Shown here: piece after piece, positions 11,156 to 44,424 of the stretch
Numbering within the stretch: position 1 is the first letter of the stretch
How the letters are laid out: the number at the start of each line of letters is the position of its first letter
From: Escherichia coli
Lineage (GTDB): Bacteria; Pseudomonadota; Gammaproteobacteria; Enterobacterales; Enterobacteriaceae
Reading direction: 5' to 3' (one strand)
NCBI RefSeq assembly: GCF_041886205.1
Contig: NZ_CP169029.1
Length of the DNA: 64,000 bases
The notes under the pieces: generated by a model
The model's input: the letters and a program-made list of their open reading frames with translations, nothing else
The model's database searches: none
Told to the model about the DNA's origin: nothing
Position numbers and translations under genes: made by a program

Positions 11156-13285
11156 TCAATCAGTTGTGGAGAATCTTGAGGAACGAGAAACATGATCACT
11201 CCCTGAATGATTGATCTCTCTGATGTTGCTAGGTGAGAGGCAACCTCTCAACCTTCTTTTATTTATTATAACTAGTCCATCATGAGGAGAGTGATTAATG
11301 TTCACAGAATCCCCACGACTAAAGGCCAGAACGTTTTTAGTTGCAAATACACCCTCAAATGCGCTCCATATTCCTGCTTTATCTATATATAATGCGTGGA
11401 ATTCATTGTAGAGCTGCTGATAGGTAGAGCAACCTTTATTAAGCCACGCCTCACCGCCGACACGCGTCGACCCATCATCATTTTTAATTTCAGTCGTTGA
11501 TTTTAATACTTGGCCATCCCAGTAAACTAAAGGCCTGCTGAACGGGAGAGCGGCCATATATGCCATTGCTAATTGTTCATCTTGTTGATGGTTAAATAGA
11601 AAGTCATTGAAAAGATTGCCATTGTTAGGAAAATCGTGGTTAATGTTAATCAATATCCGTCTTTTTGATGGGATGCTTGAGATTGTTGAACCCGGTTTTG
11701 ATGCAAGGGTTTGGAGATCGCCACCAAATGAAAAAGCTTTTATCGTCTTCATGAGCAATGAAAAATCAATGGCGCTTAAATCATCTCTTTCATAAAGCAG
11801 CGATGACATTTGTTGTTCATCCAACTGACTAGTTACCAGATATTCCATGTAATTCATAACGGCTTTTTCATGATATTTTGGGTTAAATAAGTTAGTATTG
11901 TGTAATCGCTCATTATAATTTTTAAGCGGTGGGGTTATTGATCTTTCTATTTGTTCATGTTTTGAGTGTTTTGCTGCATCGTAACGTAAACCTCGTACGC
12001 CATATTTTCGCATTTCACGAACGTATTGATTTTGCAGCATAATAACCTGGTCACTTTTGGGGGTTGTTTTAGGCATTCCATTTAAACGCTTTTCTTTTAA
12101 TGCATAGAGGTTTTCCCATTCATCCTTAGAAATATTATCTTTACTTGCTTCGAAGTCTTTTGCAGTGAGATGTATATCTTCTGGATGGATTTGTTTACGT
12201 TCTTTTGTTACTGGATCTATAGTAAATGGAATCAAAACCTGACCTTGCCAATAGCCAGGGATACCACTTTCTATATCTTTACTGATCTTCGCTCGTATAT
12301 CAGTAGAGGGATAATCCAGGTCATTTTTACCACTACCCCCGATTCCCATAAAGTTAAAGGTATAATCAGGAATGATATCGATACCAAATTTTTTAGCATC
12401 TTTAACCAATGCGATAAAATCCTGCAAATCTCCCATTGGATTATGGATGGTACAAAGATCTTCGGGTTGATAAGCGTGAAACCAGTAACCTTTTTCTTCT
12501 TCGGGAGTTTCTGGTCCGTCGGCGCGGAAAGTTGTCACTGGAGGGATTTGTATATACCCATAATGGCAACGTGCAAACTCAGACATATTTTCCCTGATTT
12601 GCTGGTAGGTGGCATTAAAAGCATGAAGAATCGCTTCGCCAGGTTTTTTAGGGGTGATGATTTCACATTGTGATTTCTGAACAGCAGTAAGAGATTTACG
12701 CTCAAGTGTTTGCCGTAGATGTTCTGGATTGATTAATATTTTAAATGTTTCTTGCTGTCCGGAAGGTGACGTCACGTTAATATTATATACATCGGCTGCC
12801 AGCTCATAGTCAGGGATGTTAATAGCATATGCAACATATTTATCTTTTGGGGAGGGTTTTTCAGATATAATGTGGGTGAAATATTCAGCAGGACCATACT
12901 GGTGAACCCCCTTGTTATCTTCTCTTTCATTCATTGTATCTCTTTGATAAATCCATGTTTTTCCTTCTCCTATCCTGTCTGGCGCTGTAATGCTACGCTG
13001 TGCAGCTTTATTCAGTTCACGGTAAGTTGTATCTGGAAAAAGGGAAATTTTATAATCGTTTTTTAACAGATCATTAATGATTTTTTCTGCGTGAAAAGTT
13101 GATATAATTTCTCTGTCTTTTAAATCCTGAGGATAAACTCCACAAGCATTAATAATATTTGTTACACAGTTTAGATATTCTAATGTATTTAATTTGGAAT
13201 TTAGATCCCCGTCAGTAATGTTCCATGATAACAATGTGGGGGTGTCGATAGGTAAATTTCTTGGTCCTGGTTTTATAGAAAACAT
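11156..13285 (-). CDS. ygaQ: Glycoside hydrolase family 13 (alpha-amylase-like) protein, YgaQ-like
   Basis: 709-aa ORF; GVRGLRYDAAKH resembles GH13 conserved region II; lies beside ileY as ygaQ does in K-12; AT-rich; the C-terminal end may be affected by the junction with the anomalous block. Confidence 0.55.
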   Translation of the reverse strand: MFSIKPGPRNLPIDTPTLLSWNITDGDLNSKLNTLEYLNCVTNIINACGVYPQDLKDREIISTFHAEKIINDLLKNDYKISLFPDTTYRELNKAAQRSITAPDRIGEGKTWIYQRDTMNEREDNKGVHQYGPAEYFTHIISEKPSPKDKYVAYAINIPDYELAADVYNINVTSPSGQQETFKILINPEHLRQTLERKSLTAVQKSQCEIITPKKPGEAILHAFNATYQQIRENMSEFARCHYGYIQIPPVTTFRADGPETPEEEKGYWFHAYQPEDLCTIHNPMGDLQDFIALVKDAKKFGIDIIPDYTFNFMGIGGSGKNDLDYPSTDIRAKISKDIESGIPGYWQGQVLIPFTIDPVTKERKQIHPEDIHLTAKDFEASKDNISKDEWENLYALKEKRLNGMPKTTPKSDQVIMLQNQYVREMRKYGVRGLRYDAAKHSKHEQIERSITPPLKNYNERLHNTNLFNPKYHEKAVMNYMEYLVTSQLDEQQMSSLLYERDDLSAIDFSLLMKTIKAFSFGGDLQTLASKPGSTISSIPSKRRILININHDFPNNGNLFNDFLFNHQQDEQLAMAYMAALPFSRPLVYWDGQVLKSTTEIKNDDGSTRVGGEAWLNKGCSTYQQLYNEFHALYIDKAGIWSAFEGVFATKNVLAFSRGDSVNINHSPHDGLVIINKRRLRGCLSPSNIREINHSGSDHVSRSSRFSTTD

Positions 13286-13844: not shown

Positions 13845-13920
13845 GGCCCTTTAGCTCAGTGGTTAGAGCAGGCGACTCATAATCGCTTGGTCGCTGGTTC
13901 AAGTCCAGCAGGGGCCACCA
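13845..13920 (+). tRNA. ileY: tRNA-Ile2 (anticodon CAT, lysidine-modified), ileY-type
   Basis: 76-nt cloverleaf ggccctttagctcagtggttagagcaggcgactCATaatcgc...ggggccacca with 7-bp acceptor stem and CCA end. Confidence 0.93.
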
Positions 13921-13928
13921 AATAAAAC

Positions 13929-13970
13929 AAGGACTTAGACAGGAAGCTGGCTAAGTCCTTTTTGTTTTGT
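13929..13970 (+). terminator. Intrinsic terminator after ileY
   Basis: Hairpin ggacttag...ctaagtcc followed by tttttgtttt. Confidence 0.6.
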
Positions 13971-13976
13971 TTCAAT

Positions 13977-14001
13977 CTGGGTGACGTAATGGGTGACGTA
14001 A
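13977..14001 (+). repeat. Tandem GGGTGACGTAA motifs at the tRNA-proximal island end; possible integrase arm-type or AlpA binding sites
   Basis: tgggtgacgtaatgggtgacgtaa; the same motif recurs at 33759-33804 next to the integrase start. Confidence 0.45.
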
Positions 14002-17176: not shown

Positions 17177-17824
17177 TTACGGGTCAACAAACACACTGAT
17201 GGGGAGGTTAAACCGGCGCGCAAGTGCTCGCTTGTGATCCAGTGTTAATGTGCAATCCCCTTTCAGGATGCGACTCACCAGAGATTTATTACCAATCTCT
17301 TCTTCAAAATCGCTCTGAGTCAGTTTGTGCTGATCCATCAGTACGCGCAGTAAGGCAACACCCGTTGGGACCGCTGCAATACGGCTATTAAATTCAGCAA
17401 ACTCCGGCGCTTCATCTTCATACTGACCGATTTTCGCAACCAGAATATCCACCAGCGGATGGTCCGGCTCGTGTTCAATCAGATACTCGACCAGAGCCAG
17501 TGCATCTTCACTGTGGAAGCGTACGACTGATGTATAGGTAACATTTTGTTCAGTAATATATTTCATGGCTGCCAGTAAGTAGGAAGCTTTGAAAGTCACG
17601 TCCTGATAGTCCTTAGCTAACAAACTCCCATTCTCTTCAAACCGTTCAACAAATGCTGCAACTTCTTTTGGATCGATACGGCTGGTTTTATCTTTTCCGT
17701 TTCGAACAAACAGCTTTTGTTCTTCAGTATATAGCGTAAAAGGTACCTTCCTTGCCCCAGTAGACAGTTCAACTGGTTGGGAAAAAGACTCCAACATTAA
17801 ATGATAGAAATCTTTATAAGTCAT
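17177..17824 (-). CDS. Protein with C-terminal XRE-type helix-turn-helix and uncharacterised N-terminal domain
   Basis: C-terminal LTQSDFEEEIGNKSLVSRILKGDCTLTLDHKRALARRFNLPISVF resembles HigA/XRE HTH; immediately downstream of the McrC-like gene. Confidence 0.55.
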   Translation of the reverse strand: MTYKDFYHLMLESFSQPVELSTGARKVPFTLYTEEQKLFVRNGKDKTSRIDPKEVAAFVERFEENGSLLAKDYQDVTFKASYLLAAMKYITEQNVTYTSVVRFHSEDALALVEYLIEHEPDHPLVDILVAKIGQYEDEAPEFAEFNSRIAAVPTGVALLRVLMDQHKLTQSDFEEEIGNKSLVSRILKGDCTLTLDHKRALARRFNLPISVFVDP

Positions 17825-17913: not shown

Positions 17914-19215
17914 TTACGGGGAAAACAGGGGGAAGGACGATTGCCACTCACCTTCCACTAATGCCCCTGATTCAAGCTCGAAGGGCACACACCAGAGCGA
18001 TAAATGTTTATCAAAATGGAACACTGGCAACGGAGTATCAAAAAACTGATGACGTGGATATATCAGCATCATATTCCCCTTCCCTTGCAGATATTTTTGC
18101 CCATAAGCGAACATCTGATACAGATCAGCCTGGTTAATTTCATACTTTCTCAGGCTGTTATCAGCTCGGCTGTCTAACAGCTTCCATTTGGCATCCAGTA
18201 CCATTACCTGCTCACCTGTGATGAGAAAGTCAGGTTTAAGCATGAACCATTGTTGAGGAGCCCTTTCGCCAGCAGGTACATGATCTAACAAATAATGACG
18301 TTTTGCCTGCTCAATAAGCTGATAATCCCTCAGCAAAGATAAAGCCAAACTGCGCCCCACCCAGCATTCATATAATTTTTCCATCGGGAACAACAGCGAG
18401 ATCCCCTGATGCAACCCATGCTGAAAATCTGGATTCAGTTTTTCCAGAATAAGTTGGCACCATGGCTTGATGGCACGATAAGCATAGAGATATTTACCGT
18501 TGCTCCATTGCGCCAGAGGCTGCGTTGTACTGCCACAAATTGGCTCTATACCGTCCAGTTGGTGGCTCAACGTGTTCGCCTGTCGCCAGCTCTGCCCCTC
18601 TTTGGTCATTTTAAGCACCCAATTCAGGGCCGTACGTAACAGACGGTTTTCAACTCGCTGAGGTGAAAACTCCGCATAACGCACATGAAAGCGAGCATCT
18701 CTACCAGGAGGCTGTCTCATTTGTGCCGTGATGTTCAACTGACCACGGATAAAAGCGCTGTGCTCATCCTCAACAAGGTGGTAGTCGAACCGCAACCCTT
18801 TGTGTACCAGTTCGGTAAGATGCCGCAAGAACTCGCTGAAAATCCACTCATGCATCGGCTGGTTGCTCCGCTGCAATGCAGCCTGATTAACTTCTCGGGG
18901 TGTAATCCCCAATGAAGCGCTGAGCATTCGACGTAAAAGCTGACGCAGGGGGATTATCTCAGTTGGCGCTTCAAATGTGGTTTTGGGCAGAATTTCAATT
19001 GACTCGCCATTCGGGGATTGTAGATAACCGACATAGCTTCCCAAACGCAAAAACCGCTTCCCTTCTCGGCTGAGAATTTGAGAGGTACCACTCCACTTTT
19101 GTTGCAATTGCTCAAGCCAGGAAAAGGTTGCCTCAGAGACAATTCCCAAATCCATACTGGCTGTTTGAGAACTATCACAAGTCAGCAGAGCATATTCCCG
19201 GACCTGGATCATCAT
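17914..19215 (-). CDS. McrC-like PD-(D/E)xK nuclease subunit
   Basis: 433 aa; C-terminal PDF...VLDAKWK catalytic-type motif; start overlaps the stop of the upstream McrB-like gene. Confidence 0.7.
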   Translation of the reverse strand: MMIQVREYALLTCDSSQTASMDLGIVSEATFSWLEQLQQKWSGTSQILSREGKRFLRLGSYVGYLQSPNGESIEILPKTTFEAPTEIIPLRQLLRRMLSASLGITPREVNQAALQRSNQPMHEWIFSEFLRHLTELVHKGLRFDYHLVEDEHSAFIRGQLNITAQMRQPPGRDARFHVRYAEFSPQRVENRLLRTALNWVLKMTKEGQSWRQANTLSHQLDGIEPICGSTTQPLAQWSNGKYLYAYRAIKPWCQLILEKLNPDFQHGLHQGISLLFPMEKLYECWVGRSLALSLLRDYQLIEQAKRHYLLDHVPAGERAPQQWFMLKPDFLITGEQVMVLDAKWKLLDSRADNSLRKYEINQADLYQMFAYGQKYLQGKGNMMLIYPRHQFFDTPLPVFHFDKHLSLWCVPFELESGALVEGEWQSSFPLFSP

Positions 19216-21194
19216 GTGACAATACCCTGATAAGCTTCTACCGACGCGAAAGCACGTTCATTGATGCGAAAACGCCTGTCAGACAAGCTATCCGCAATAT
19301 CTTTCGGGAATAGTTCAGAGAATGACGGTAATTGTGCTGACTGTTGCAACAGGATAAAACGGTTTTCTTTCGCTTTTACCGAATCATTAAGCACCCAACC
19401 AATGCGCTCATAATCATCAAAGAAATACTCTCTCAGTAATGGAATGATTTTGTTCTGGAAGATGCTGGCCAGACAGGCTTCGCGGTCGGCATTATTTTCT
19501 AATTTTTTTAGTGGCATAAAGTAAGCATGGCCAATCATATGTTCACTATCCAGCAGCGCTTCGATCCGCTGATTAATACGCGTTAACAACGTTTCGACAT
19601 CAACACCGAACGCAGTGACCCCAGCTAACAGCTCCGGTCGTGCGGGCATTTCGGTAAAGCTAAAGCGTCGTCTTAGCGCCAAGTCCATTTGGATGAGTGA
19701 TTTATCCGCAGTATTCATCGTCCCAATGACATAAACATTTTGCGGTACTGAGAATGCTTGCTTTGAATAAGGGAGCATCAGCGACCGCTCATCATCGGCC
19801 CCTTGACGTTTGTCCGGCTCAAGAAGAGTAATAAGCTCACCAAAGATACGTGCTATATTACCGCGGTTGATTTCATCTATTATCAGTACATGTGGTAGAT
19901 CCTGACTATCGGCATTCTCAACAGGAGCCAGCAACTGAGTTAATTTTTCACGATCAATCGTCGTATCCTGCAACTCATATAGGGTCATCTGAGATAGTGA
20001 CTTGATGAAAATTTGCTCTTTAGGAAGGCTTGGGGTGTATGTTCTTAACCATTTAACTGAACGCATTTGATGGTAATACTCACGTTCATCATTGGGTAAA
20101 TAACTATACTCACCTGTAATCTCAGCTATTGCACGGAACTTATGATTTCCATCAGAGACGACGACTAAATCGCCATTCTTAATAATATTTTTAAAGGTAT
20201 TCACGGCAACAGCCATATAATTACTGGTGCCTTCCAATGACTGTTTTTCTGATGCAATCCGAGCTTTGACTGACTCATAGGTAGAGCAGTTACTAAAATC
20301 GATATCTTCTCCCCAACCTAGCAGGACATAATTGTTTGCCAGGCAGTCCTCATACACATCCTCTTCTCCGCCCATGGTATTACCCAGAGACATCTTCCAG
20401 ATCCGCCGACCTTTGAGTGAGATAGATTGTGTTGCACTCCCCTGAACTTTAACCCTGGCATTCAGGCACAGCTGTTTAAAAATACCATCCACAACTTCGT
20501 AGCGAAGCGCGCCCGATTTTTCATCAGTAGTTGCGCGAATCCCTTCGATAAAATCTTCATAGGAGAAGCTCTGATGGAAGGTGGTAAACATAATGCGCTG
20601 CTTTTCTACCAACGCCTTATAGCGTTCATTTACCAACTCCCGTAAGTCATTGCCATGATGTTCGAGCGTAGCCTGTTGGTACCACGTATTATCGGCAATT
20701 TTGACCGCCATTTCGGTGGTACTGTAGGTTTTACCCGTGCCGGGTGGTCCAAAGAGAATTTGGTTTAAGGGATACATTAACGATTGTTCCTTATTTTCGT
20801 TGTCTCTTTTTAGTCTGGGTTGGGTAGTTATAGATGGTTTACCACCCAGCAAAGCCACCAGCGTCTGCAACGCTTCAACGGATTCAACATCAGCCGCGAA
20901 ACCATATTGGGATGTACCGTTATCTTTCGGATAACGGCGGTAGCTGGTGCTTTTTACTTTTTCCCAAAGGCAGTGGATACCCGAAATGCGATCAATTTCC
21001 GCTTTTACGGCAAGGGTTTCAGGTGCAAGAACCAATGGACTCTTTTTAACCACGCCGTCCCGGCTGCGTTTGACATACAGATACTTTCCATTCCCGAGCG
21101 CATGTTCGGATGCATAGCTTGGCTCGAATTTTCCCGCCTCAAGCCGGTAACCCAATTCATTCAACGCCTGGTATATCTCGAAAGAATTCAGCAT
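19212..21194 (-). CDS. McrB-like AAA+ GTPase subunit with an unusually long insertion inside the AAA+ module
   Basis: Walker A ILFGPPGTGKTY, McrB-signature LIIDEINRGN and RRRF; about 285 aa between Walker A and Walker B; AAGGAG RBS before the ATG. Confidence 0.75.
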   Translation of the reverse strand: MLNSFEIYQALNELGYRLEAGKFEPSYASEHALGNGKYLYVKRSRDGVVKKSPLVLAPETLAVKAEIDRISGIHCLWEKVKSTSYRRYPKDNGTSQYGFAADVESVEALQTLVALLGGKPSITTQPRLKRDNENKEQSLMYPLNQILFGPPGTGKTYSTTEMAVKIADNTWYQQATLEHHGNDLRELVNERYKALVEKQRIMFTTFHQSFSYEDFIEGIRATTDEKSGALRYEVVDGIFKQLCLNARVKVQGSATQSISLKGRRIWKMSLGNTMGGEEDVYEDCLANNYVLLGWGEDIDFSNCSTYESVKARIASEKQSLEGTSNYMAVAVNTFKNIIKNGDLVVVSDGNHKFRAIAEITGEYSYLPNDEREYYHQMRSVKWLRTYTPSLPKEQIFIKSLSQMTLYELQDTTIDREKLTQLLAPVENADSQDLPHVLIIDEINRGNIARIFGELITLLEPDKRQGADDERSLMLPYSKQAFSVPQNVYVIGTMNTADKSLIQMDLALRRRFSFTEMPARPELLAGVTAFGVDVETLLTRINQRIEALLDSEHMIGHAYFMPLKKLENNADREACLASIFQNKIIPLLREYFFDDYERIGWVLNDSVKAKENRFILLQQSAQLPSFSELFPKDIADSLSDRRFRINERAFASVEAYQGIVT

Positions 21195-21223
21195 TTCCTA
21201 CACCACTCCTTGATGAAAAAGCG

Positions 21224-24200
21224 TTAAGCCCCTTTCAACATATCAAACACCACGCGGGCAAAGCCCTTCGCCAGTTCAGGATTAGAGAGGTATTGCACCA
21301 TCATCTCCTGCTGGGCGTCGTTGCTGTCCATCACGGCATCATCAATGGCTTTCGGGAAATCGCCCAGCATCGCCTGCTCACGCGTATTGTTCGCAATCTG
21401 GGTCATCACCGCCTGGTTTTCTGACAGCTTGTCGCGCACCGCGAAGGCATAATTGATCATGTCTTTATCGGTCAGATTATCGGTGACGAACAGCTCGTTC
21501 AGGCGCGCCAGGATATTCGACAGAAACTCTTCTTTCTTGTCTTTCGGCTTCGCCGTACCGACATCATTCCCCGGTGTGATTTTGTATTCTGCCGCATCTT
21601 CCTGCAGCTTCAGATGCTGTTCGTGGAGTTTCGACAGGCGATAATGGCTCATCTCCACGTTGCTTAAATCAATCTCATCTTCTTCGATACGCTGTTCATG
21701 CAGTAACGGGCGCAGGTGGCGGGCAAATAGGCTCAGTTTTTCCAGGTTCTTGTCGTCGTAATCGACGATTTGCGACATAAACTCGTAAAAGCGGACAAAG
21801 CTGCCGAGGTCTTTCTTGAAGATATCCAGCTTACTTTTTTCTTTCTCGCACTCTTTGAAGCTGTTTTCCGCATTGGTGATCAGCACAACATCGCCGGTCT
21901 TCTTAGTACGTTCGAAGATCGCTTTGGCCTTTACATACTCGTCAATCGCCGAGGTGTAACGCTGTTTCCAGCGCTGCACCGCTGGTTTGCAGATATTACT
22001 AATGGCCGCGTTGGATTTGTTTTTGCTGAAGAACGCTTCGCAGAACTGCTCCACTTCGTTCCACAGGAAAATACCGCTGGTACGCAGCTTTTCAAAGAGC
22101 TCAAAGACCTGTTGCGGGTCGCTGACATCCGTCAGTTCTGCTGTCTGGTAGTACGGCTGGAAAGCCCCCAAAATCTCGTCGGGCTCGTTGTAGAAATCGA
22201 GCACAAAGGTGCCTGACTGCGCCTTCCCCGGATAGGTACGGTTCAGGCGTGACAGCGTCTGTACACACTCCACGCCGCCAAGCTTTTTATCCACATACAT
22301 GGCACACAGCTTGGGTTGGTCAAAACCGGTCTGGAATTTGTTGGCCACCAGCATCACCTGGTAGTCGTCGGTATCAAACGCTTTGCGCATATCCCGGCCT
22401 TTCAGGCCTGGGTTCATATTGATTTCGGTGAACTTCTGGTTAAGCAATGCAAGGCTATTGTGGTCATCTTCATGGAACTCAACTTCACCGGAGAACGCCA
22501 CCATTGCGCTGATCTTGTCGTATTTTTGCTCGGCGATGTATTTATCGAATGCCAGCTTATAGCGCACCGCTGCTTTACGCGAACTGGTCACCACCATCGC
22601 TTTCGCCTGACCAGCCAGTAAGTGCATCACATGCTTGCGGAAGTGCTCAACAATCACCTTCACTTTCTGCGACACGTTATGATCGTGCAGCGATACCCAC
22701 TGGTTGAGTTTGATCTTGGCTTTCTTGCTGTCTACTTCCCGGTCAGGATCGTCCAGCTTTTGCAGCAGCTTGTACGCCACCTTGTAGTTGGTGTAGTTCT
22801 TCAGCACATCAAGTATGAAGCCTTCTTCGATGGCCTGACGCATTGAGTAAACGTGAAACGCTTCCGGTTTGTTCGTTTTCGACGCCGGTTCCTGCGGATT
22901 AGGACGACGGCCAAACAGCTCCAGCGTTTTGGCTTTCGGCGTGGCGGTAAAGGCGTAATAGTTGAGATTGTTGCTGCCTTTACGTGCGGCGACGGTGGCA
23001 TCCAGAATATCTTCTGAAGACATCTCCACATCGTCATCCGCTTCTTCGGTCATAAGCACTTCTTTCAGCTGACGCGCCGTAGAACCACTCTGCGAGGAGT
23101 GCGCTTCATCGGCAATCACCGCGTATTTGCGCTGCTTGAGGCTGACGCTGTTTTCAATCGCCTTCAGGACAAACGGGAACGTCTGGATAGTGACGATAAT
23201 GATCGGCTGCGAGTTTTCCAGCGCGCTGGCCAGCTTCTCCGATTTAGAACCGTCGCCTTCTTTGTTATTGATCCGCCCGACCACGCCATCCTGATGCTCA
23301 AACTGATAGATGGTGTCCTGCAGCTGATCGTCAAGCACGGTGCGGTCCGTCACCACAATCACCGAATGGAACTGCTTCTCGCCATTTTCATCATACAGGC
23401 GGGAAAGCTGATGGGCCGTCCAGGCGATAGAGTTAGATTTGCCCGACCCGGCACTGTGCTGAATCAGGTATTTATTGCCGGTGCCTTCCACTGTGGCGGC
23501 GGTGATCAGTTTATTCACCACATCCCACTGGTGATAGCGTGGGAAAATCAGGCTCTCACTTTTGTACTTCAGGCCAATGGCATCTTCTTTTTCTACGATT
23601 TGCAGATGCACGAAGCTCGCGAGAATTTTCAGCAGATTGTCCGGCAGTAGCACCTCATTCCACAGGTAGCTGGTGGCGTAGTCGTTGGCATCTTCCGGGA
23701 TATCGTTCCCCGCACCGCCGTCATGGGTGCCTTTGTTAAACGGCAGGAAGAAGGTTTTATCGCCCTCGAGTTTGGTCGCCATAAACACTTCGTACTGGCT
23801 GACGGCAAAGTGCACCAGCGCGCCGCGTTTAAAGGTCAGCAGCGGCTCGGGTTTATTAGTGCCTGGGTCCTTTGGCAAACGCGTTTTCTTATATTGCGTA
23901 ATGGCGTTTTGCACCGTCTGCTTAAATTCAGACTTCAGTTCCAGGGTCGCTATCGGCAGGCCATTAACGAACAATACCAGGTCGATACGCCATTTCTTCG
24001 CTTTTATACCGGTATCTTCAAATGCGGCGTTCGATGCATGCGGGCTGTAAACCAGCTCCGGCACGATGCGGCAGATATTCTGTTTATAACGAGCCAGTGT
24101 TTCCGGATTGAGGTTATGTTCCGGCTTAAACTGGCACAGAGAAAAACGCGCGTTATGGCTTTTGATACCATGTCGCAGCACGCCTAAAGTGCCATAGGTG

Positions 24201-24472
24201 CGCGAAAGCATATCAGTAGCGTTGATGTCCGCTTTTTTCAGCTGCGCCACCAGCGCATCGAGGAAATGACGTTCGGTATCGGTAGGGTAAATTTTGGCAA
24301 ACTTCTCCCACTCCTGCGGCTGTGTGGTCTGCACAAAGGTCAGCACATCCTGGGAATACAGCGCACGTTCGCGATCATAGCCGTCAGTTTTGCCACAAAT
24401 CCAGCCTTTTGCTTTCATCTGAGCAATCATTTCGTTCTGGAAGATAAGCTCTTTGGTGCTGTCCATGCTCAT
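21224..24472 (-). CDS. hsdR: Type I restriction enzyme R subunit (HsdR)
   Basis: 1082 aa; N-terminal PD-(D/E)xK (IDLVLFVNGLPIATLELKSE), helicase motif I HSAGSGKSNS, DEAH box VIADEAHSSQ. Confidence 0.88.
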   Translation of the reverse strand: MSMDSTKELIFQNEMIAQMKAKGWICGKTDGYDRERALYSQDVLTFVQTTQPQEWEKFAKIYPTDTERHFLDALVAQLKKADINATDMLSRTYGTLGVLRHGIKSHNARFSLCQFKPEHNLNPETLARYKQNICRIVPELVYSPHASNAAFEDTGIKAKKWRIDLVLFVNGLPIATLELKSEFKQTVQNAITQYKKTRLPKDPGTNKPEPLLTFKRGALVHFAVSQYEVFMATKLEGDKTFFLPFNKGTHDGGAGNDIPEDANDYATSYLWNEVLLPDNLLKILASFVHLQIVEKEDAIGLKYKSESLIFPRYHQWDVVNKLITAATVEGTGNKYLIQHSAGSGKSNSIAWTAHQLSRLYDENGEKQFHSVIVVTDRTVLDDQLQDTIYQFEHQDGVVGRINNKEGDGSKSEKLASALENSQPIIIVTIQTFPFVLKAIENSVSLKQRKYAVIADEAHSSQSGSTARQLKEVLMTEEADDDVEMSSEDILDATVAARKGSNNLNYYAFTATPKAKTLELFGRRPNPQEPASKTNKPEAFHVYSMRQAIEEGFILDVLKNYTNYKVAYKLLQKLDDPDREVDSKKAKIKLNQWVSLHDHNVSQKVKVIVEHFRKHVMHLLAGQAKAMVVTSSRKAAVRYKLAFDKYIAEQKYDKISAMVAFSGEVEFHEDDHNSLALLNQKFTEINMNPGLKGRDMRKAFDTDDYQVMLVANKFQTGFDQPKLCAMYVDKKLGGVECVQTLSRLNRTYPGKAQSGTFVLDFYNEPDEILGAFQPYYQTAELTDVSDPQQVFELFEKLRTSGIFLWNEVEQFCEAFFSKNKSNAAISNICKPAVQRWKQRYTSAIDEYVKAKAIFERTKKTGDVVLITNAENSFKECEKEKSKLDIFKKDLGSFVRFYEFMSQIVDYDDKNLEKLSLFARHLRPLLHEQRIEEDEIDLSNVEMSHYRLSKLHEQHLKLQEDAAEYKITPGNDVGTAKPKDKKEEFLSNILARLNELFVTDNLTDKDMINYAFAVRDKLSENQAVMTQIANNTREQAMLGDFPKAIDDAVMDSNDAQQEMMVQYLSNPELAKGFARVVFDMLKGA

Positions 24473-25791
24473 GCGGTGGCCTCCTGTGGCTCCTCAGCGT
24501 CCTGCGTGTCAGGTGCTACCCAATCACGGACGTCGATTTTTCCGGTGACGGCAGCGGAGATCAGGGCGGTACGGCGTTCCTGGAGAATTTGAATAGTCTG
24601 CTCGACCATTTCTTGAGTTATTTGTATTTTGTCTATCTTTTCCAGTACTTTTTTTGCCAGATAAACCTGATCATCAAAAGGAATATCTCTCACGTAAAAA
24701 TTACTAATTTGCTCTGGACTAATATGCGGCACACTAACACCAGTCAAGTCTATTTCAGCATATTCTCTGAATTCATTGCTACTAAGACATAATTTAATAA
24801 ATGGTTGATATGATTTTATATTTGACCTTATCCTTGCAACTCGCTGCAATAAGAGGCAAGGTAAATCCTGCTCTTTAATTTCTGAAACCCTTGCTCCAGA
24901 ACTAATCCATGGTCTATCCATACCAAAAACAATATCGCCAGCCGCTAATAAATAATCACTGAGCCTATCGAGTGTTCTAACATCCCAATATACAACGTCA
25001 TCCCATTTTATGCTGTCAACACCGACATTAACCCCTCGTAAAAGAGGAATACTATTATCAGGTGAAAATTTAAATTTTGTACTTGAAAATGGATAGCCAG
25101 TTTGAATACTAACTAAGTTTTTTAGCTTAGTTTTCCTCTCATTACTACGTATACTGGCGACACTTGAGATCACGGCCTGACGCTTTTCTTTAAGTAGTTC
25201 AATTAGTTGCTGTTGCTTCTCGATCAGGTTATCGATTTTTGCAGTTTCGTGATCGAGGAAACTGTATATTTTTTCCTGCTCAGTCTTGTCTGGAAGCAGC
25301 AGCTCAATATTTCTAAATTCATCAGGATCCAGATCCCATTGATTGACTCGTATCCCCTTGGAGCGGCTCAGATATTGAGTAACGTAAATCGGGTTGCGAA
25401 GTAAATAATGCACATACCTTGGATGTGCCAGTTCAAAAAGGACATTGTTGGGTTTATAGACAAAATATGCCGGACTAACTATCCCTTCATACTCTGAAAT
25501 TGCGATTGAACCTTGCCAGGCTTTCATCTTATTCATAACCAAATCATTTGGCTCAACCAATTGATAGGGGGACAAATCCTCTGAAGGCTTATTATTGTTA
25601 TCATCTCTGCTTGATTTTGGTATAACACCATAGTCCCGATATACGGAAAGCAATTCTTTCTCTGTATATCCGGTCCGCTTGATCCTGGAAAACAATCTGG
25701 ATATGGATACGGTTTTCCAGTGATTCGGAATCTCCCCCAACCACTCAACCCCAGAATCCTTATACTCCGGATACATCTTATACTTCGCCAT
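24469..25791 (-). CDS. hsdS: Type I restriction-modification specificity subunit (HsdS)
   Basis: 440 aa with two target-recognition-domain-like halves separated by a coiled-coil-like spacer; overlaps hsdM stop and hsdR start. Confidence 0.8.
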   Translation of the reverse strand: MAKYKMYPEYKDSGVEWLGEIPNHWKTVSISRLFSRIKRTGYTEKELLSVYRDYGVIPKSSRDDNNNKPSEDLSPYQLVEPNDLVMNKMKAWQGSIAISEYEGIVSPAYFVYKPNNVLFELAHPRYVHYLLRNPIYVTQYLSRSKGIRVNQWDLDPDEFRNIELLLPDKTEQEKIYSFLDHETAKIDNLIEKQQQLIELLKEKRQAVISSVASIRSNERKTKLKNLVSIQTGYPFSSTKFKFSPDNSIPLLRGVNVGVDSIKWDDVVYWDVRTLDRLSDYLLAAGDIVFGMDRPWISSGARVSEIKEQDLPCLLLQRVARIRSNIKSYQPFIKLCLSSNEFREYAEIDLTGVSVPHISPEQISNFYVRDIPFDDQVYLAKKVLEKIDKIQITQEMVEQTIQILQERRTALISAAVTGKIDVRDWVAPDTQDAEEPQEATA

Positions 25792-28175
25792 CAGGAATGT
25801 ACCTCCCGCAGCAGCTTCATAATCTCGGTACTGACTGCATCCAGATCGGCATCAATCTCTTCCAGTGGGCGCGGCGGCTGATAGACGTAGAAATGGCGGT
25901 TAAACGGAATCTCATAACCGACAATTCCCACCTCACCATCTTTCGCATCACGCTTATCGGCGTTGATCCACGCATCATTTACATGCGGCAGCACTTCTGC
26001 TTTGAAGTAGTTTTCGATCAGGTCGCTGGTCGACATTGCCGGGTTCAGCGGCACGTTTTCGTTATCGCGCAGCTCGCCGTCCTGTTCGAACTCAACAACC
26101 TTGCCTTTGTACTCAAACGCACCGTACAGCGGCTGAGCGGCTTCTTTCAGCACCTTCTTCACCACCGGCTCGGCATCCGGGTTTTTCGTGGTAATGGCAT
26201 CGATAAACTGCTTGTTCTCTTTCGCATCCAGCTTCACGCCAGCCGTTTTGATGGCCCCTTTCAGGGTCAGTTGGAACTGATTGAAGTCATTGCTCACCCG
26301 CGTTTTGCCACCCGCCTGCGCACCCAATACCACCTGAATCTGCTGTGCTTTTTCCATGAACTCGCGCTGTGCCAGCCACAATTTGCTGTCGAGCAGGTCT
26401 TTAATCTGCTTCTCTTTCAGCTCTGCAAATTCGGCTTTGATGATGGCGCGCGCTTCGGCTTCCAGTTCGGAGAAATCACCATAGCTGTCCTCCCTCCACT
26501 GGGATGCGAACTCTTCATACAGGCGTTCCATTGGCGCGTTAAACGGCTTCGGCGCAAAGCGCAGAGTCGCAATCGCTTCATCAGTCACCTGTGCAGATAA
26601 CCGCAGCGGGCGCTCAATGGTCAGGCGGCGATAGCCAAAGTCGGTGCTGTTAAAGATTTTGCTGGCGAAGGTTTTCGGAGCTTCGGTTTTGGCCATGGCA
26701 GGCTGACGGCCACGGTTGGATTTTTGCTCGGCGGCTTTTTCCAGACCCAGTTCTTCCAGGGCTGTGACATCCACCACCTGAAAATCACCGAAGGTCTGCG
26801 TGATCAGTTTGATATCGTCTTCGCCCATCAGGTTGCGCTTGGAACCCAGCGATTTACGCATTTTGCCGCACAGGTTAGTGCCATCAATCAGCTGTACTTT
26901 TCCTTTACGCTCAGGCGCTTTCTTGTTGGAGAGGATCCAGACGTAGGTGGCAATACCGGTGTTGTAGAACATATCTGTTGGCAGCGCGACGATGCCTTCC
27001 AGCAAATCGGCTTCCAGAATGTAGCGACGGATTTCGCTCTCACCGCTGCCCGCACCACCAGTAAACAGTGGAGAGCCGTTAAGGATAATCCCGATACGTC
27101 CGCCGTTGCTCACGGTGCCATCCACATTGTGGTTGTCGCGCATTTTGCTGATCAGGTGCATCAGGAACAGCAGCGAGCCGTCGGAAACACGCGGCAGGCC
27201 CGGGCCAAAGCGACCGTTAAAGCCCTTTTGCGTATGTTCGTCGTTAATCTCGCCCTCAATCTTCTTCCAGTCCACGCCAAACGGTGGGTTAGACAGCATG
27301 TAGTCGAATTGATCCAGCGGTAACTGGTCGTTAGAGAGGGTGTTACCCAGCTTAATGCGGCTGACGTCCTGACCTTTGATCAGCATGTCGGCTTTACAGA
27401 TAGCGTAGGATTCCGGATTCAGCTCCTGACCAAAAGCGCGCATCACCGCGTTAGGGTTCAGCTCGTGCACATATTCCATGCCCGAAGAGAGGAAACCACC
27501 CGTCCCGGCCGTCGGGTCATAAATGGTGCGGATGATACCAGGCTGCGTCAGGGCTTCATCATCTTCCATAAACACCAGTGAAGTGGTCAGACGCACGATA
27601 TCGCGTGGGGTGAAGTGCTCACCGGCGGTCTCGTTAGATCTTTCCGCGAAACGACGGATAAGTTCTTCAAACACCAGGCCCATCTCATAGTTGGAAATCG
27701 CTTTCGGGCTGAGATCGGTGGTGGCGAATTTCTTCACTACTTTGAACAGCAAGTTGGCGTCTTCCAGCAGGCCGACGAACTCACTGAATTTAAAATGCTC
27801 GAAGATTTCACGCGCATCGGGCGAGAACGACTGGACGTAATTCTCCAGGTTGGCTTTGATGTCGTTCTGCCCCATCTTGCCAAGATCCATCTTCGAGGTG
27901 TTGAAGAAGGAAAGCTCGCTGGCGCGCAGCAGAAACTTCTCTTTGGCATCTTCCGGCAGCGTGCTGGTTTTTAATTCATCATATTTCGCCACCACCGCAT
28001 CTTTGGTCTCCGCCAACACACACTCAAGACGGCGCAGCAGCGTAAAGGGCAGGATCACGCGCCCGTACTGAGACTGTTTGAAATCACCGCGCAGTAGATC
28101 GGCCACCGACCATATAAACGCAGCCGTTTGAGAAAAGTTAGTGTTAGTCATAAGCGACACCCAAAAAAATGGCAT
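25791..28175 (-). CDS. hsdM: Type I restriction-modification methyltransferase subunit (HsdM), long form; alternative start at 28151
   Basis: N-terminal HsdM_N-like region ([37 protein letters not shown]), NPPF catalytic motif, about 250-aa C-terminal extension. Confidence 0.82.
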
Positions 28176-28358
28176 AAAAAAGTGGCAAGATTATACCCCA
28201 TCAGGCATAAGATGCTTTGACTTATAACGCATCAGTTTGAAACACAATGGTGATGGGGGTCACAGGGGCTGACATGTACTTTTAAGATTAAAAAGCATTA
28301 ACATCTACTTTTGAAGAAAACAGAAAAAAACAATCACAAACCTTTAAAAACAAAAACT

Positions 28359-31300
28359 ATGCCAATTATTAATAAAAAGTATCAAGAGCTTCAGTTAACA
28401 GATGAGTACATTACCGATCCACTGCTCATGGCCCTAGCCTGGAAGAAAAGCCATCACTACATACGTACCACAAATTGGTATGCTGACAACTTTGAACTAG
28501 ACCTGTCGGCTTTGGACCTAATGCAGCACTGTAAAGATTGGGTCAAGAGAATGCAGGACAAAAAAGAATTTAAATTTTCAGAGCTACAACTTGTTCCTGT
28601 ACCAAAAGCCTGTAAATGGGAGTTTAAGACTGTCGAAAATAAGGTTCTATGGCAACCTTGTGATGAAAAAGAACTTACCCTACGCCCCCTTGCCCATATA
28701 CCCATAGCTGAACAAACCATCATGACATTAGTCATGATGTGCCTAGCCAATACAATAGAAACCAAGCAAGGAAACCCAGACACCAGCTATGACATCGTCC
28801 ACCAGAAAGGTATCGTCAATTACGGAAATAGACTTTATTGTCAGTATATTGACGATAAAGCAGAGCACAGCTTCGGTGCAACAGTGACATATAGTAAATA
28901 CTTCACTGATTATCGGAAATTTTTAAATAGGCCTTATCATTTTGCGTCAAAAGCGCAAGGTGAAATTTCGCCGGACGAAGCCGTTTACATCATAGAACTA
29001 GATCTTGCGAAGTTTTTCGATTTAGTAAACAGGAAGACTCTAATTCAAAAGATAAAAAACCATATCAGTGAGTCAATAAACAATAAAGAAAACCCACTCG
29101 CCAATCATTTATTTAAATGTTTTGCAAACTGGGACTGGACTGCATCTAGCATAAAAAATTATGACATATGCAAGTCAGACGAAGTAACAGAAATACCAAA
29201 AGGCATCCCTCAAGGATTGGTTGCAGCAGGGTTTCTATCAAATATTTACTTACTTGAATTAGATCAATTCTTGCATAATAAAATTAACACAGACATAACT
29301 GATGACATTAAATTTGTTGATTACTGTCGATATGTCGATGACATGCGATTTGTGGTTAAGGTTAAAAAATCAAAAAATAATAATACCGCATTCATAAATG
29401 ATGTAATAACCAATCTTCTTAAAAATGAGATAGATAATCTTGGACTGATAATTAATCCTAAAAAAACAAAAGTAGAAATTTTTAGAGGCAAATCCGCAGG
29501 CATCTCGCGTAGCTTGGAAAACATCCAGACCAGATTAAGCGGCCCAATATCAATGGATAGCGCCAACGAACAACTTGGGCATCTTGAGTCATTATTAAGT
29601 CTGACAAAAACCGATTTTGAACCACCGAAAAATGGTAAATCAAATAGATTAGCTGAGATTGAAAAAGACCGTTTCGATGTCAGGGAGGACACTCTTAAGC
29701 GCTTTTCTGCCAATAAAATCAGTAAGATACTAAAAGAGTTAAGACATTTCATCTCGCAGGATATAGATACTGATGGGGAGGTTATTGCCGGGGAATGGGA
29801 TTATCTGCAAGAACGTTTGGCACGGCGTTTTATTGTCTGTTGGAGCCATGACCCGTCACTGGCACTGCTACTCAAGAAAGGGCTGGAACTTTTCCCTGAT
29901 CCTAAGCTATTAGACCCTATACTTGAACAGCTTTGCTCACTCATTGAAAGCGATAATGAAAAACAAAGTGCAGTAGCTACTTATTGCCTTGCTGAAATAT
30001 TTCGACATTCAGCAATGACTATTCATAAAAAAGACACCTATGCATTCCCTGCACAAGCCAATGTGGATGGGTACTTTGAAAAAATACAACATTGCGCCGC
30101 GACATTCATTAATAAGCGCAGCGCCTCTGACAACGAAACTTGGAACCTGTTAATTAATCAGGCTAGTTTTCTGTTGCTTGTGCGTTTAGATAATACATTA
30201 GAAAAAAATGGCACTGATGCCAGGCATGATCTTATCTTAAAACTGGCATCAGGCTTTAGAACAATTACACTTCCCACTAAAATGGATAGCAAGACTATAG
30301 CCTCATGTATTTTGTTGGCTAGTCAATTAGTTAAAGATAACAAACCATTTATTCGCTCCTGCGCTTCTTTGTGCGAAAGAATTTATGACAAAGAACACGT
30401 CATAAAATTGAAGAAAATAGTTAGCATAATATCACATCAAAACTTATCATTGTTTAAATCCTTAGTTTATCATTCACGACCTTTACAACAGAAGTGGCTA
30501 AACTCAGACTCCGTGAAAATAATAATTAATGAATGCCATATAGATATACAACCTTTGGCGACTTCTTTAGGCATGATAAAAAGTAGTCACTCATTACTTA
30601 GAATCATATCAAGACCTGATAACCCATTTGCCAATGAGATAATGGCATTAAAACTGATGCAAGCCCTTTTATTGGACAGGATTGTTTGCCTGGATAATAA
30701 AAAAGATTATCAAATAAGTGTAGCAAACACCAAAGTGACGTTTCATAACTACTCCAACCCTCCAACATCGAATGTCTTCGATGCAGGAATGGATATGGAT
30801 GCAAAATTATTCAAATCATCGGGATGGGTCGATTCTATTTTCACGGATGATGCAGACACTCAAATATTGTATAGAGTTGCCATGTGCATCCGTTCAGTAC
30901 TACTCGGCAAACAAGACTGGACAGATTTTGGTCAAGCAATTTCCCCCAAACAGGGTTATCGGGGTATTAAAACTAGTAGAGACAAACGTCAATTGGGGAT
31001 GATGACAACACCTGAGTCCATTGCCGGTGAGAACTCTCAGGTTTCTGGTTGGCTTACCACACTCTTATCCAAGTTGCTTGCCTGGCCGGGAATTTCAGTG
31101 GGTGATAATGGATATCAATGGCCAGCAATTTTTACAGTAGATGCTGTCAGAAAACTAGTTGATGCTCGGCTGAGTAAACTTAAGCAGGATTACTGCAAAC
31201 TATCAGGAACTCCGGGACTTACAGAAAAAATACAGTTCAACTGGTCTGACTCGAAAAAAGCCCTAACAGTTGCTATGGTCCAGTCAAAACTGCCTGCAAC

Positions 31301-32135
31301 GAAAGATTTTGTCAGCCATGGACTTCTTTTAAACTCCGCAAAGTATAGAGTGATTCATCGCAGACATGTTGCTGAAGTGGCTGATTTAGTTGTAAAACAC
31401 ACGCTTGCACAAAAAACAACTCAACGAACTCATGGTGAAAAAATAGAGAACATTGATTTAATAGTATGGCCTGAGCTCGCTGTACATAGTGACGATTTGG
31501 ATGTACTCATCGCCTTATCTAGAAAAACGAATGCAATCATATACTCGGGCCTGACATTTATTGAGCAACCTGGAATCAAAGGACCAAATAATTGTGCCGT
31601 TTGGATTGTCCCACCTAAAAGCAATAGCAGCCAGAAAGAAATGATAAGACTTCAAGGCAAGCATAATATGATGGAAGATGAGAAAGGCCGGGTTGAACCC
31701 TGGAGACCATACCAATTGATGCTTGAACTTGTTCACCCCCAATTTACTGATAAAAAAGGATTTGTTCTCACAGGCTCCATTTGTTATGACGCAACCGACA
31801 TCGCGCTAAGTGCAGATCTCAGGGATAAATCAAATGCTTATCTTGTAGCAGCATTAAACAGGGATGTTAATACATTCGATTCCATGGTTGAAGCACTGCA
31901 TTATCATATGTACCAGCATGTTGTGCTCGTTAACTCAGGGGAATTCGGAGGATCTTACGCTAAAGCACCTTACAAGGAGCCGTTTAATCGTTTGATTGCT
32001 CATGTTCATGGCAATGATCAGGTAGCTATAAGTACGTTTGAAATGAACATGTTTGATTTCCGTCGTGATAATATAGGAAAAAGTATGCAATCCGGGTTAG
32101 ATAAAAAAACTGCTCCTGCAGGAATCATAATGTAA
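28359..32135 (+). CDS. Reverse transcriptase-nitrilase fusion, defence-associated RT type 1 (UG1)-like
   Basis: RT motifs GIPQGLVAAGFLSNIYLLELD and YCRYVDDMRFVV (YVDD); C-terminal carbon-nitrogen hydrolase motifs IVWPELAV and LTGSICYDATD; start trimmed from the TTG-initiated ORF 28311 to ATG at 28359. Confidence 0.75.
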   Translation: MPIINKKYQELQLTDEYITDPLLMALAWKKSHHYIRTTNWYADNFELDLSALDLMQHCKDWVKRMQDKKEFKFSELQLVPVPKACKWEFKTVENKVLWQPCDEKELTLRPLAHIPIAEQTIMTLVMMCLANTIETKQGNPDTSYDIVHQKGIVNYGNRLYCQYIDDKAEHSFGATVTYSKYFTDYRKFLNRPYHFASKAQGEISPDEAVYIIELDLAKFFDLVNRKTLIQKIKNHISESINNKENPLANHLFKCFANWDWTASSIKNYDICKSDEVTEIPKGIPQGLVAAGFLSNIYLLELDQFLHNKINTDITDDIKFVDYCRYVDDMRFVVKVKKSKNNNTAFINDVITNLLKNEIDNLGLIINPKKTKVEIFRGKSAGISRSLENIQTRLSGPISMDSANEQLGHLESLLSLTKTDFEPPKNGKSNRLAEIEKDRFDVREDTLKRFSANKISKILKELRHFISQDIDTDGEVIAGEWDYLQERLARRFIVCWSHDPSLALLLKKGLELFPDPKLLDPILEQLCSLIESDNEKQSAVATYCLAEIFRHSAMTIHKKDTYAFPAQANVDGYFEKIQHCAATFINKRSASDNETWNLLINQASFLLLVRLDNTLEKNGTDARHDLILKLASGFRTITLPTKMDSKTIASCILLASQLVKDNKPFIRSCASLCERIYDKEHVIKLKKIVSIISHQNLSLFKSLVYHSRPLQQKWLNSDSVKIIINECHIDIQPLATSLGMIKSSHSLLRIISRPDNPFANEIMALKLMQALLLDRIVCLDNKKDYQISVANTKVTFHNYSNPPTSNVFDAGMDMDAKLFKSSGWVDSIFTDDADTQILYRVAMCIRSVLLGKQDWTDFGQAISPKQGYRGIKTSRDKRQLGMMTTPESIAGENSQVSGWLTTLLSKLLAWPGISVGDNGYQWPAIFTVDAVRKLVDARLSKLKQDYCKLSGTPGLTEKIQFNWSDSKKALTVAMVQSKLPATKDFVSHGLLLNSAKYRVIHRRHVAEVADLVVKHTLAQKTTQRTHGEKIENIDLIVWPELAVHSDDLDVLIALSRKTNAIIYSGLTFIEQPGIKGPNNCAVWIVPPKSNSSQKEMIRLQGKHNMMEDEKGRVEPWRPYQLMLELVHPQFTDKKGFVLTGSICYDATDIALSADLRDKSNAYLVAALNRDVNTFDSMVEALHYHMYQHVVLVNSGEFGGSYAKAPYKEPFNRLIAHVHGNDQVAISTFEMNMFDFRRDNIGKSMQSGLDKKTAPAGIIM

Positions 32136-33758: not shown

Positions 33759-33804
33759 GTTACGTCACCCAGTCTGATTCTGGGTGACGTAGTGGGTGAC
33801 GTAA
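33759..33804. repeat. Three GGGTGACGTA motifs (one inverted, two direct) upstream of the island integrase
   Basis: gttacgtcaccc ... tgggtgacgtagtgggtgacgtaa; same motif as 13977-14001. Confidence 0.45.
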
Positions 33805-33929: not shown

Positions 33930-33976
33930 GACTCATAATCGCTTGGTCGCTGGTTCAAGTCCAGCAGGGGCCACCA
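33930..33976 (+). repeat. 47-bp direct repeat of the ileY 3' end (attR of the island)
   Basis: Identical to tRNA positions 13874-13920. Confidence 0.85.
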
Positions 33977-34731
33977 AATCATCATTCATGTATCAGGAAG
34001 AGTTAAGGGTACAAGGGGTACTCGATGGCGGTCTATATTTCACGATTAACGCCATTTCAAGGAAGAAGTGCGGTGGGTGGTTTCGAATGAGGGCTGGTGT
34101 TTTGGTACGTGGCATGCCACTGCAATGTATTTATCCATCAGTACTCATTCAAAAGTACCTGGAAAAAATGCCCGCTATGCCAAGCGGGCAAATTGCTTAC
34201 ATGTGGAATTAAGTAATTAACGATAAAGCCAGAGTATTATCATTTATCATGCCTCTTCATTTAATCAGGTTAATTACTCAAATCACTGAACTATTCTCTG
34301 TTCGCTTACTGATGATAAGTGAAGTGTCACAACCACGATTTGTATGTGGACCAATGCCGTAGAGTAAGGATGAAATGTCTCTGCCACGCATTAAACATCT
34401 ACTACTGACCAGAACACCCGCCGCAGGCAGATGAGTCTTGTGAGTATTACAGAAGCATGGCTATGCTCATTAACCAACTCTAATAGATATAAATTCCTAA
34501 CACTCGAAAAACGAATTTCACTAATAAGTCATAACGGGTGATTTTTATCATACAGCGAAATAACCTTTTGTTTATTAAATTTAACATTCTTGTGCTTATT
34601 TAATTAAAAATTCCATGCGTAGCATGTGAAACAGTTAATGTCAGCAAATGTCTCAAATGAGCGATTTTTTATAGTGACAAACAGTAATAACGTTAAAAAT
34701 AGCCATGAAGACATTAACTGAGGAATAGACA

Positions 34732-44413: not shown

Positions 44414-44424
44414 GGTGTTCTCCC

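Follow-up and report, generated by a model that had tools for sequence, protein, structure and literature searches.

We analyzed a 64,000-nucleotide stretch of the Escherichia coli chromosome extending from ygaM to smpB (NCBI RefSeq assembly GCF_041886205.1, contig NZ_CP169029.1; hereafter the window), in which the genes of a Type I restriction-modification (R-M) system and those of a McrBC-like restriction enzyme follow one another on the minus strand. An initial annotation, made from the sequence alone, had placed five open reading frames (ORFs) here, namely hsdM, hsdS, hsdR, a McrB-like gene, and a McrC-like gene; their coordinates proved correct, and family and profile searches of all five proteins upheld the proposed identities. 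The genes and intergenic segments are as follows.

25791–28151, minus strand: hsdM, 786 amino acids (aa), with HsdM_N and N6_Mtase domains and a C-terminal extension of ~320 aa
24469–25791, minus strand: hsdS, 440 aa, specificity subunit
21224–24472, minus strand: hsdR, 1082 aa, with an HSDR_N nuclease, an SF2 motor, and a T1R_D3 domain
21195–21223, minus strand: hsdR/mcrB spacer, 29 nt, containing AAGGAG
19212–21194, minus strand: mcrB-like gene, 660 aa, AAA+ GTPase
17914–19215, minus strand: mcrC-like gene, 433 aa, DUF2357/McrBC domain nuclease subunit
17177–17824, minus strand: sixth gene, 215 aa, N-terminal half without an assigned family, C-terminal helix-turn-helix (HTH)
28152–28310, no strand: divergent intergenic region between hsdM and drt1a

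The junctions were read directly from the sequence. The hsdM and hsdS genes share one nucleotide at position 25791 (TGATG, with GGAGG upstream), hsdS and hsdR share four at 24469–24472 (ATGA, with AGGAGG upstream), and mcrB and mcrC share four at 19212–19215 (ATGA). The three overlaps are those listed in the initial annotation, and together with the hsdR/mcrB gap they bear out its description of a compact co-directional string; the gap itself, which it had given as 30 bp, is 29 nt. The longest ORF for hsdM spans 25791–28175 and would encode 794 aa; in RefSeq and in homologues the protein begins at ATG 28151, which is probably the true start, rather than 28175.

Promoters and terminators were sought by a consensus scan over 16.5–29 kb of the window, compared with shuffled sequence. 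The scan gave 18 promoter-like sites against a shuffle expectation of 17.8 and 10 terminator-like sites against 12.5. Independent signals between hsdR and the McrB-like gene had been named at the outset as the observation that would contradict a single unit; the scan finds no promoter-like or terminator-like site in the 29-nt spacer. A perfect TATAAT, read directly, lies on the minus strand at 28190–28195, ~39 nt 5′ of the hsdM ATG, and is a candidate for the operon promoter by its sequence and position; a weaker promoter consensus match was scored at 28385–28356.

The spacer has room for a ribosome-binding site and is too short for a promoter. Approximately 26 of its 29 nucleotides are nearly invariant across all nine of the nine aligned loci, including loci that have no hsdR, though the synonymous sites of mcrB have diverged (synonymous divergence, dS, 0.18–0.99); this conservation is consistent with a conserved translation-initiation region. 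The five genes are co-directional, their junctions are very short or overlapping, there is no internal terminator, and the geometry is kept in homologues, as is expected of an operon. Because of the overlapping stop and start codons and the 29-nt spacer with its conserved ribosome-binding site, co-transcription and coupled translation are expected, and on the basis of gene spacing the five genes probably form one transcription unit, as the initial annotation had reasonably suggested.

By its gene content, the Type I R-M system is complete, in the order hsdM-hsdS-hsdR. HsdM matches PF12161 (E = 1e-26), PF02384 (E = 4e-55), the PADLOC MTase_I model PDLC03029 over its full length (947 bits), and Type I M subunits in the PDB (E = 1.5e-30). 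Its score against the TIGR00497 equivalog, 78.5, is under the cut-off of 242.75, which points to a divergent Type I family; sequence comparison places the system in a family with a long, 786-aa HsdM. That a 794-aa HsdM is a mis-called or fused ORF was considered and rejected in view of the full-length PADLOC match and the length of 786 aa in RefSeq and in Klebsiella homologues. HsdS is recognized by the PADLOC Specificity_I model in two stretches (338 bits), and Methylase_S is recorded for its homologues. Between cassettes HsdS is hypervariable, with 36–65% identity, as expected for specificity switching, which argues that the specificity subunit is diversifying. HsdR contains HSDR_N, SWI2_SNF2, ResIII, and T1R_D3-like domains, matches TIGR00348 below the cut-off (E = 2e-51, 175 bits; cut-off 284.55), and is related to the HsdR of EcoR124 (E = 2e-11). 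Residues 999–1080 of HsdR (21224–21469), outside its Pfam-recognized domains, match the PADLOC candidate family PDC-S15 (E = 7e-11).

The McrB-like protein carries the Walker A motif GPPGTGKT, HQSFSYEDF, the Walker B motif IIDEINR, and the NxxD signature NTAD; GPPGTGKT, IIDEINR, and MNTAD are invariant in 18 homologues. It is related to the McrB proteins of Thermococcus gammatolerans (TgMcrB, E = 1e-56) and E. coli (E = 6e-33). The possibility that the pair are orthologues of EcoKMcrBC was rejected, since both proteins fall under the NCBIfam equivalog cut-offs (McrB-like versus NF008457, EcoKMcrB, 120.8 bits, cut-off 637; McrC-like versus NF007277, 62.1 bits, cut-off 338) and the N-terminus is YgaC-like; a Pfam search of the McrB-like protein found no MrcB_N, the DUF3578-type N-terminal reader of 5-methylcytosine. 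Membership in the CoCoNuT systems was likewise rejected, as the signature NTAD is NxxD and not NxD and the domain models give no coiled-coil. The McrC-like protein matches PF10117 over residues 56–387 (E = 8e-88), and its nuclease motif PD...D-A-K is intact (LKPDF...VLDAKWK).

The alignment of the McrB-like protein with TgMcrB is split, residues 144–164 and 200–249 corresponding to TgMcrB 25–104 and residues 435–613 to TgMcrB 166–366, which identifies residues ~250–434 as an insert in the GTPase domain. Two segments of the protein are distinguished.

19890–20462, minus strand: GTPase-domain insert, aa ~245–435, Pfam DUF8426, YTH/EVE (PUA-like) fold
20841–21194, minus strand: N-terminal domain, aa 1–118, YgaC/DUF2002-like fold

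Precomputed Pfam annotation places DUF8426 on the insert, beside McrB_lid, and the insert sits between Walker A and Walker B. In the predicted structure it has the PUA-like beta-barrel fold common to YTH and EVE domains, and its best structural matches are readers of N6-methyladenine (m6A); W266, W382, and Y406 are invariant in the alignment of McrB-like homologues. From the modeled fold, DUF8426 is a putative modified-base reader, and we infer that the McrB/McrC pair is modification-dependent. The N-terminal domains are swapped or absent among McrB relatives, two of which (P0050 and P0053) begin at the GTPase.

The segment 17000–28370 is matched at 100% identity in one complete genome, that of strain GDSC2227PM, and the full cassette is present in 1 of 5,426 complete E. 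coli genomes. Silvania, Kluyvera, and Klebsiella (loci L083–L087), together with an unclassified Enterobacterales isolate, carry a cassette of the same make-up: a 786-aa HsdM, a variable HsdS, a 1082-aa HsdR, a 660-aa McrB, a ~440-aa McrC, and, in most cases, the HTH gene. The geometry in these relatives is identical, with overlaps of 1 nt between hsdM and hsdS, 4 nt between hsdS and hsdR, and 4 nt between mcrB and mcrC, and a gap of 28–29 nt between hsdR and mcrB. The ratio of nonsynonymous to synonymous divergence (dN/dS) against these relatives is 0.035–0.08 for HsdM/HsdR and 0.08–0.14 for McrB/McrC, and there are no internal stops; these values place all four enzyme genes under purifying selection and indicate that the cassette genes are functional. 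Loss of the McrB/McrC pair by pseudogenization in homologous loci, the second observation that the initial annotation had put forward as contrary to its proposal, was checked and rejected on these values. The exception is Kluyvera YDC799 (L008), where hsdM, hsdS, mcrB, and mcrC are split, perhaps by assembly indels.

The blocks of the cassette have diverged to different degrees. Between the Silvania copy (L003, 10001–13338) and positions 17914–21194 of the window, dS is 0.18 for McrB and 1.05 for McrC; against the Klebsiella copies it is 0.27–0.39 for hsdM and hsdR and 0.66–1.14 for mcrB and mcrC. Judging from this divergence, the cassette is a recombination mosaic.

The 215-aa ORF at 17177–17824 starts 89 bp past mcrC. 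The C-terminal half of its product matches HTH_3 (E = 0.0014) and the transcriptional regulator family phrog_1373 (E = 1e-7), and the protein matches PADLOC PD-Lambda-2_B (E = 9e-7). The full ORF is kept after McrC in 9 of the 11 close enterobacterial and Klebsiella loci checked, with dN/dS of 0.16–0.39 against close relatives, and is cut to 101 aa in two Klebsiella quasipneumoniae loci. RefSeq annotates just the C-terminal part of 17177–17824, as a pseudogene ("transcriptional regulator, missing N-terminus").

To follow the linkage beyond close relatives, one genome per species was scanned, which gave 80 loci of the McrB family of the window. Type I partners were sought with iterated hidden Markov models built from the window proteins, with NCBIfam spot checks; single-query phmmer missed other Type I families, such as the 1154-aa EcoKI-like HsdR of an Aliivibrio locus (L029). 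Locus counts are approximate, since the iterated HsdR model may take in some non-Type I SF2 helicases. Co-directional Type I genes were found in 37 of the 80 loci and genes on the opposite strand in 1, and both HsdM and HsdR are present in 20 of the 48 loci that are flanked by 7 kb or more on each side. Three gene orders recur, which can be written MSR-BC (as in the window), MS-BC-R, and RMS-x-BC, where x stands for extra genes, and McrBC often lies close to the Type I genes, the junctions ranging between a 4-nt overlap and ~60 nt. A Microbulbifer locus (L030) has a classical hsdM (285 bits) and hsdR (479 bits), both above the NCBIfam cut-off, and the EcoKI-like HsdR of the Aliivibrio locus matches PRK11448 at 1433 bits; by these assignments the Type I partners come from at least three Type I families. 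The arrangement is thus less unusual than the initial annotation implied: the same linkage occurs across genera and Type I families, and Bell et al. 2024 (PMC11090510) have described it at a general level.

Each half of the cassette also occurs without the other. An hsdMSR set 78% identical to that of the window, without McrBC, is present in 115 of the 5,426 complete E. coli genomes, and the one such locus inspected (H2) lies in the yjiS–yjiA immigration control region beside a GmrSD enzyme. In Enterobacter soli (L006), McrBC and the HTH gene stand without Type I genes and with no adjacent methyltransferase; this module lies 3′ of a 579-aa ORF and housekeeping genes, and its homology to the window begins precisely with the spacer. 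In Enterobacter sichuanensis, a remnant of the hsdR 3′ end is all that remains of the Type I system.

Other loci carry additional genes between the two halves. In Buttiauxella massiliensis (L007, 5798–9949), three co-directional genes, encoding proteins of 362 aa, 450 aa, and 591 aa, the last a Hsp70/DnaK-like ATPase, lie between hsdR and mcrB; a duplicate of the final ~36 bp of hsdR precedes mcrB, so that the insertion is flanked by the repeat. The 362-aa and 450-aa genes gave no family match; the inserted genes may be an uncharacterized defense module that used the hsdR/mcrB junction as its insertion point. The RMS-x-BC loci of Aliivibrio, Vibrio, Shewanella, and Rheinheimera (L029, L067, L074, and L077) have 2–3 extra genes between hsdS and mcrB. 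Those of the Aliivibrio locus encode a 381-aa ABC/OLD-type AAA ATPase (MADS3-like, E = 2e-24) and a 231-aa partner without an assigned family, and extra genes of this type resemble the rlo-type inserts of hsd loci.

These data bear on the simplest alternative, that the neighborhood is mere defense-island packing, with an mcrBC promoter inside the end of hsdR and a tight spacing that has no functional meaning. Defense genes do cluster, with Drt1a next door in the window and Zorya adjoining a Klebsiella copy of the cassette, and cassettes break exactly at gene boundaries, as seen in the Buttiauxella insertion and the E. sichuanensis remnant. However, packing does not account for the orientation bias (37 co-directional loci to 1), for the recurrence of short or overlapping junctions in unrelated Type I families, or for a spacer fitted to a ribosome-binding site and not to a promoter; in established operon-prediction practice, such gaps strongly predict co-transcription in E. 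coli. We therefore consider packing alone an unlikely explanation.

Comparison with known systems separates what is shared from what is particular to this cassette. The initial annotation noted that E. coli K-12 has hsd and mcrBC in the same neighborhood as separate units, and the spacing agrees: intervals of 200, 227, and 161 bp, together with symE/symR, separate the genes there. K-12 is alike in that hsdR-hsdM-hsdS-symE-mcrB-mcrC are co-directional, with a Type I system beside McrBC; it differs in its R-M-S order, in the symE/symR element between hsdS and mcrB, and in EcoKI belonging to another Type I family. EcoKMcrB reads DNA through its N-terminal domain and not through a GTPase insert. 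An Rfam scan of the cassette gave no RNA gene and no symE/symR-like element, and a repeat search within it gave only short, chance-level matches. In the McrB of T. gammatolerans the YTH domain is N-terminal, whereas in the window the putative reader is within the AAA+ domain and the protein begins with a YgaC-like domain.

Bell, Sahakyan, Makarova, Wolf, and Koonin (eLife 2024, PMC11090510) have already noted putative operons of Type I and McrBC genes and the frequent presence in McrB GTPase domains of inserts "likely encoding specificity domains", and deferred the detail on the Type I-associated McrBC branch to a forthcoming publication. That branch has the NxxD signature, as does the McrB of the window (NTAD), a likeness by signature. 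The principle of a Type I system and McrBC in one putative operon is therefore already in the literature, and the finding will not surprise a specialist. Our additions are modest: the YTH/EVE fold predicted for DUF8426 in the GTPase domain, the YgaC-like N-terminus, the island boundaries, and the evidence of modularity.

Taken together, we read the locus, with a probability of about 0.7, as a conserved, horizontally mobile defense cassette made up of two restriction systems, each self-sufficient and both probably on one transcript. Since each half also occurs alone, the two are most likely autonomous enzymes, linked and co-transcribed, rather than one fused machine, and the best reading of the recurrent geometry is that selection repeatedly brings them together as a co-directional and probably co-transcribed unit. 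The transcript would begin 5′ of hsdM and continue through five genes, perhaps the sixth as well, the overlapping stop and start codons coupling translation. From family membership, HsdS would direct m6A methylation of host sites, and HsdR would translocate along and cut DNA that lacks the mark. The McrB hexamer would bind a modified base absent from the host through DUF8426, possibly with the YgaC-like domain, and the PD-(D/E)xK subunit McrC would then cut. The benefit is probably complementary cover, in which phages that evade the Type I enzyme by base modification become targets of McrBC, as well as co-inheritance as a single transferable block.

Several points weigh against this reading. 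A promoter may lie within the 3′ coding region of hsdR despite the consensus scan, and in E. soli expression of the module must depend on unrelated DNA that precedes it. Because the divergence of hsdM/hsdR, of mcrB/mcrC, and even of mcrB and mcrC differs, the blocks appear to recombine independently and are not strictly co-inherited. Modification dependence is predicted from fold similarity at 11–20% identity, and DUF8426 has no match to any Pfam EVE or YTH model or PDB sequence. The best fold matches read m6A, yet host DNA carries m6A from HsdM; it also carries m6A from Dam. Since the host itself bears this mark, a cytosine modification or a hypermodified base seems a more likely target of McrBC than m6A.

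The fold also bears on the opposite possibility, an enzyme of the LlaJI kind that is blocked by modification and cuts unmodified DNA, with HsdM or another methylase protecting the host. LlaJI itself, in which genes for a McrB-like NTPase, a McrC-like nuclease, and methyltransferases form one operon (EcoSal review, PMC12707154), is the precedent; many McrBC branches are associated with methyltransferases (PMC11090510), and the GTPase core weakly matches PADLOC REase_II models (E = 5e-14 and 8e-10). LlaJI, however, uses a B3 domain to recognize its unmodified site and needs two methylases, whereas the fold of the insert is that of modified-base readers and the E. soli module stands among housekeeping genes with no methyltransferase adjoining. 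In addition, HsdS is far more variable between cassettes than McrB, which is 85–95% identical, and this is unexpected if McrB must match the HsdS site. We regard this possibility as very improbable.

A further alternative is a functional integration of the two halves. The Type I complex might keep McrBC in check or recruit it, and McrBC would then serve as a back-up set off when phage anti-restriction proteins inhibit the Type I enzyme, like PrrC in EcoprrI, or as an extra nuclease at sites bound by HsdM/HsdS. In at least ten loci (L011, L019, L027, L030–L032, L036–L038, and L064) McrBC lies between hsdS and hsdR, and in this MS-BC-R order the junctions to hsdR are close, ranging between a 4-nt overlap and 61 nt. 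The linkage recurs over three Type I families; the N-terminal domain, with its YgaC-like fold, could serve for docking. The EcoprrI–PrrC system is alike in that a Type I hsd operon also encodes a second effector, internally or as its last part. There, prrC lies between hsdS and hsdR, as McrBC does in the MS-BC-R loci, and PrrC, an RNase (anticodon nuclease), is physically masked by the Type I enzyme EcoprrI. In the window McrBC follows hsdR, and any such masking would be hypothetical. By analogy, McrBC could be a dependent second layer, silenced by or docked to HsdM/HsdS/HsdR, perhaps through the YgaC-like domain, and freed or recruited once Type I restriction is disabled or evaded by a phage. 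If true, this would be the DNA-cutting counterpart of the EcoprrI–PrrC guard arrangement and would explain the repeated insertion of McrBC of the DUF8426 family in or at the end of unrelated hsd operons.

A related lead comes from Klebsiella pneumoniae NUH66, in which a "Type I-like" HsdM/HsdS pair adjoins a complete McrBC (Oo et al. 2025, PMC12456054). Restriction there is HsdS-dependent and no HsdR is detectable, which would suit an integrated enzyme. The NUH66 cluster resembles ours as an enterobacterial cluster of hsdM/hsdS and complete McrBC but differs in lacking HsdR and in having McrBC upstream, whereas the window and Klebsiella loci L083–L087 have an intact 1082-aa HsdR; moreover, its McrBC may be of another family than that of the window. 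We considered, following this lead, that McrBC replaces HsdR in the present family, and rejected it: HsdR is retained in all 20 of the 20 well-flanked loci with HsdM and HsdS. This retention also speaks against integration, as do the occurrence of both halves alone, the absence of Type I genes from about half of the McrB-family loci, and the swapping or loss of the N-terminal domain in relatives. We thus hold functional integration to be improbable, and the dependent second layer, with its docked or silenced McrBC, doubtful to the same degree.

In the preferred reading of two autonomous systems, two opposite restriction logics, one that cuts unmarked DNA and one that would cut marked DNA, are packaged for joint transfer and probably for joint expression. 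The cassette is rare in E. coli and conserved in Klebsiella and other Enterobacteriaceae and therefore may bar the entry of plasmids and phages in clinical strains. DUF8426, listed by Pfam without a function, is predicted to be a YTH/EVE-type modified-base reader in a GTPase ring subunit, and the orphan YgaC/DUF2002 fold is seen here as one of the modules in a restriction enzyme.

The cassette sits in an island integrated at a tRNA gene, as the initial annotation had described: the tRNA, perfect 50-bp direct repeats of its 3′ part, and an integrase inside were all found. The island features are the following.

13845–13920, plus strand: tRNA with a CAT anticodon, Met(CAT) by ARAGORN and tRNA-Ile (ileY) in RefSeq, the island integration site
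13874–13923, plus strand: attL, 50-bp perfect direct repeat, 3′ part of the tRNA
28311–32135, plus strand: Drt1a (UG1 reverse transcriptase-nitrilase) defense gene, full length, PADLOC 1396 bits
32429–33838, minus strand: island tyrosine integrase, NF007246 E = 3e-27
33930–33979, plus strand: attR, second perfect copy of the 50-bp repeat

The two att sites are 20,056 bp apart, and 0 such matches are expected in shuffles. Past attR the K-12 backbone resumes with ypjC/B and a ypjA-like autotransporter. Close to each end, but still within the island, is another repeat, GGGTGACGTA(A/G)TGGGTGACGTAA, whose two copies at 13969–14001 and 33772–33804 may represent arm-type integrase binding sites. Drt1a is divergent from hsdM, with which it shares the common intergenic region of ~160 bp; at the position of Drt1a, strain GDSC2227PM has an IS1 instead.

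A second mobile element lies at ssrA (42080–53148), with an integrase at 51961–53148 and a P4-family primase at 42080–44413. Its RNAs include a C4 antisense RNA (46060–46147) and isrK (46255–46332). Beside the integrase lie two ORFs of low G+C content, at 49105–50685 (526 aa) and 50815–51801 (328 aa), neither of which has an NCBIfam, PADLOC, or PHROGs match; P4-like satellites usually carry anti-phage cargo at that position. Just upstream of ileY, an ORF of 709 aa without a family match (11156–13285, minus strand) is intact in the window, and its counterpart in GDSC2227PM is split by an IS1 and annotated as two pseudogene fragments.

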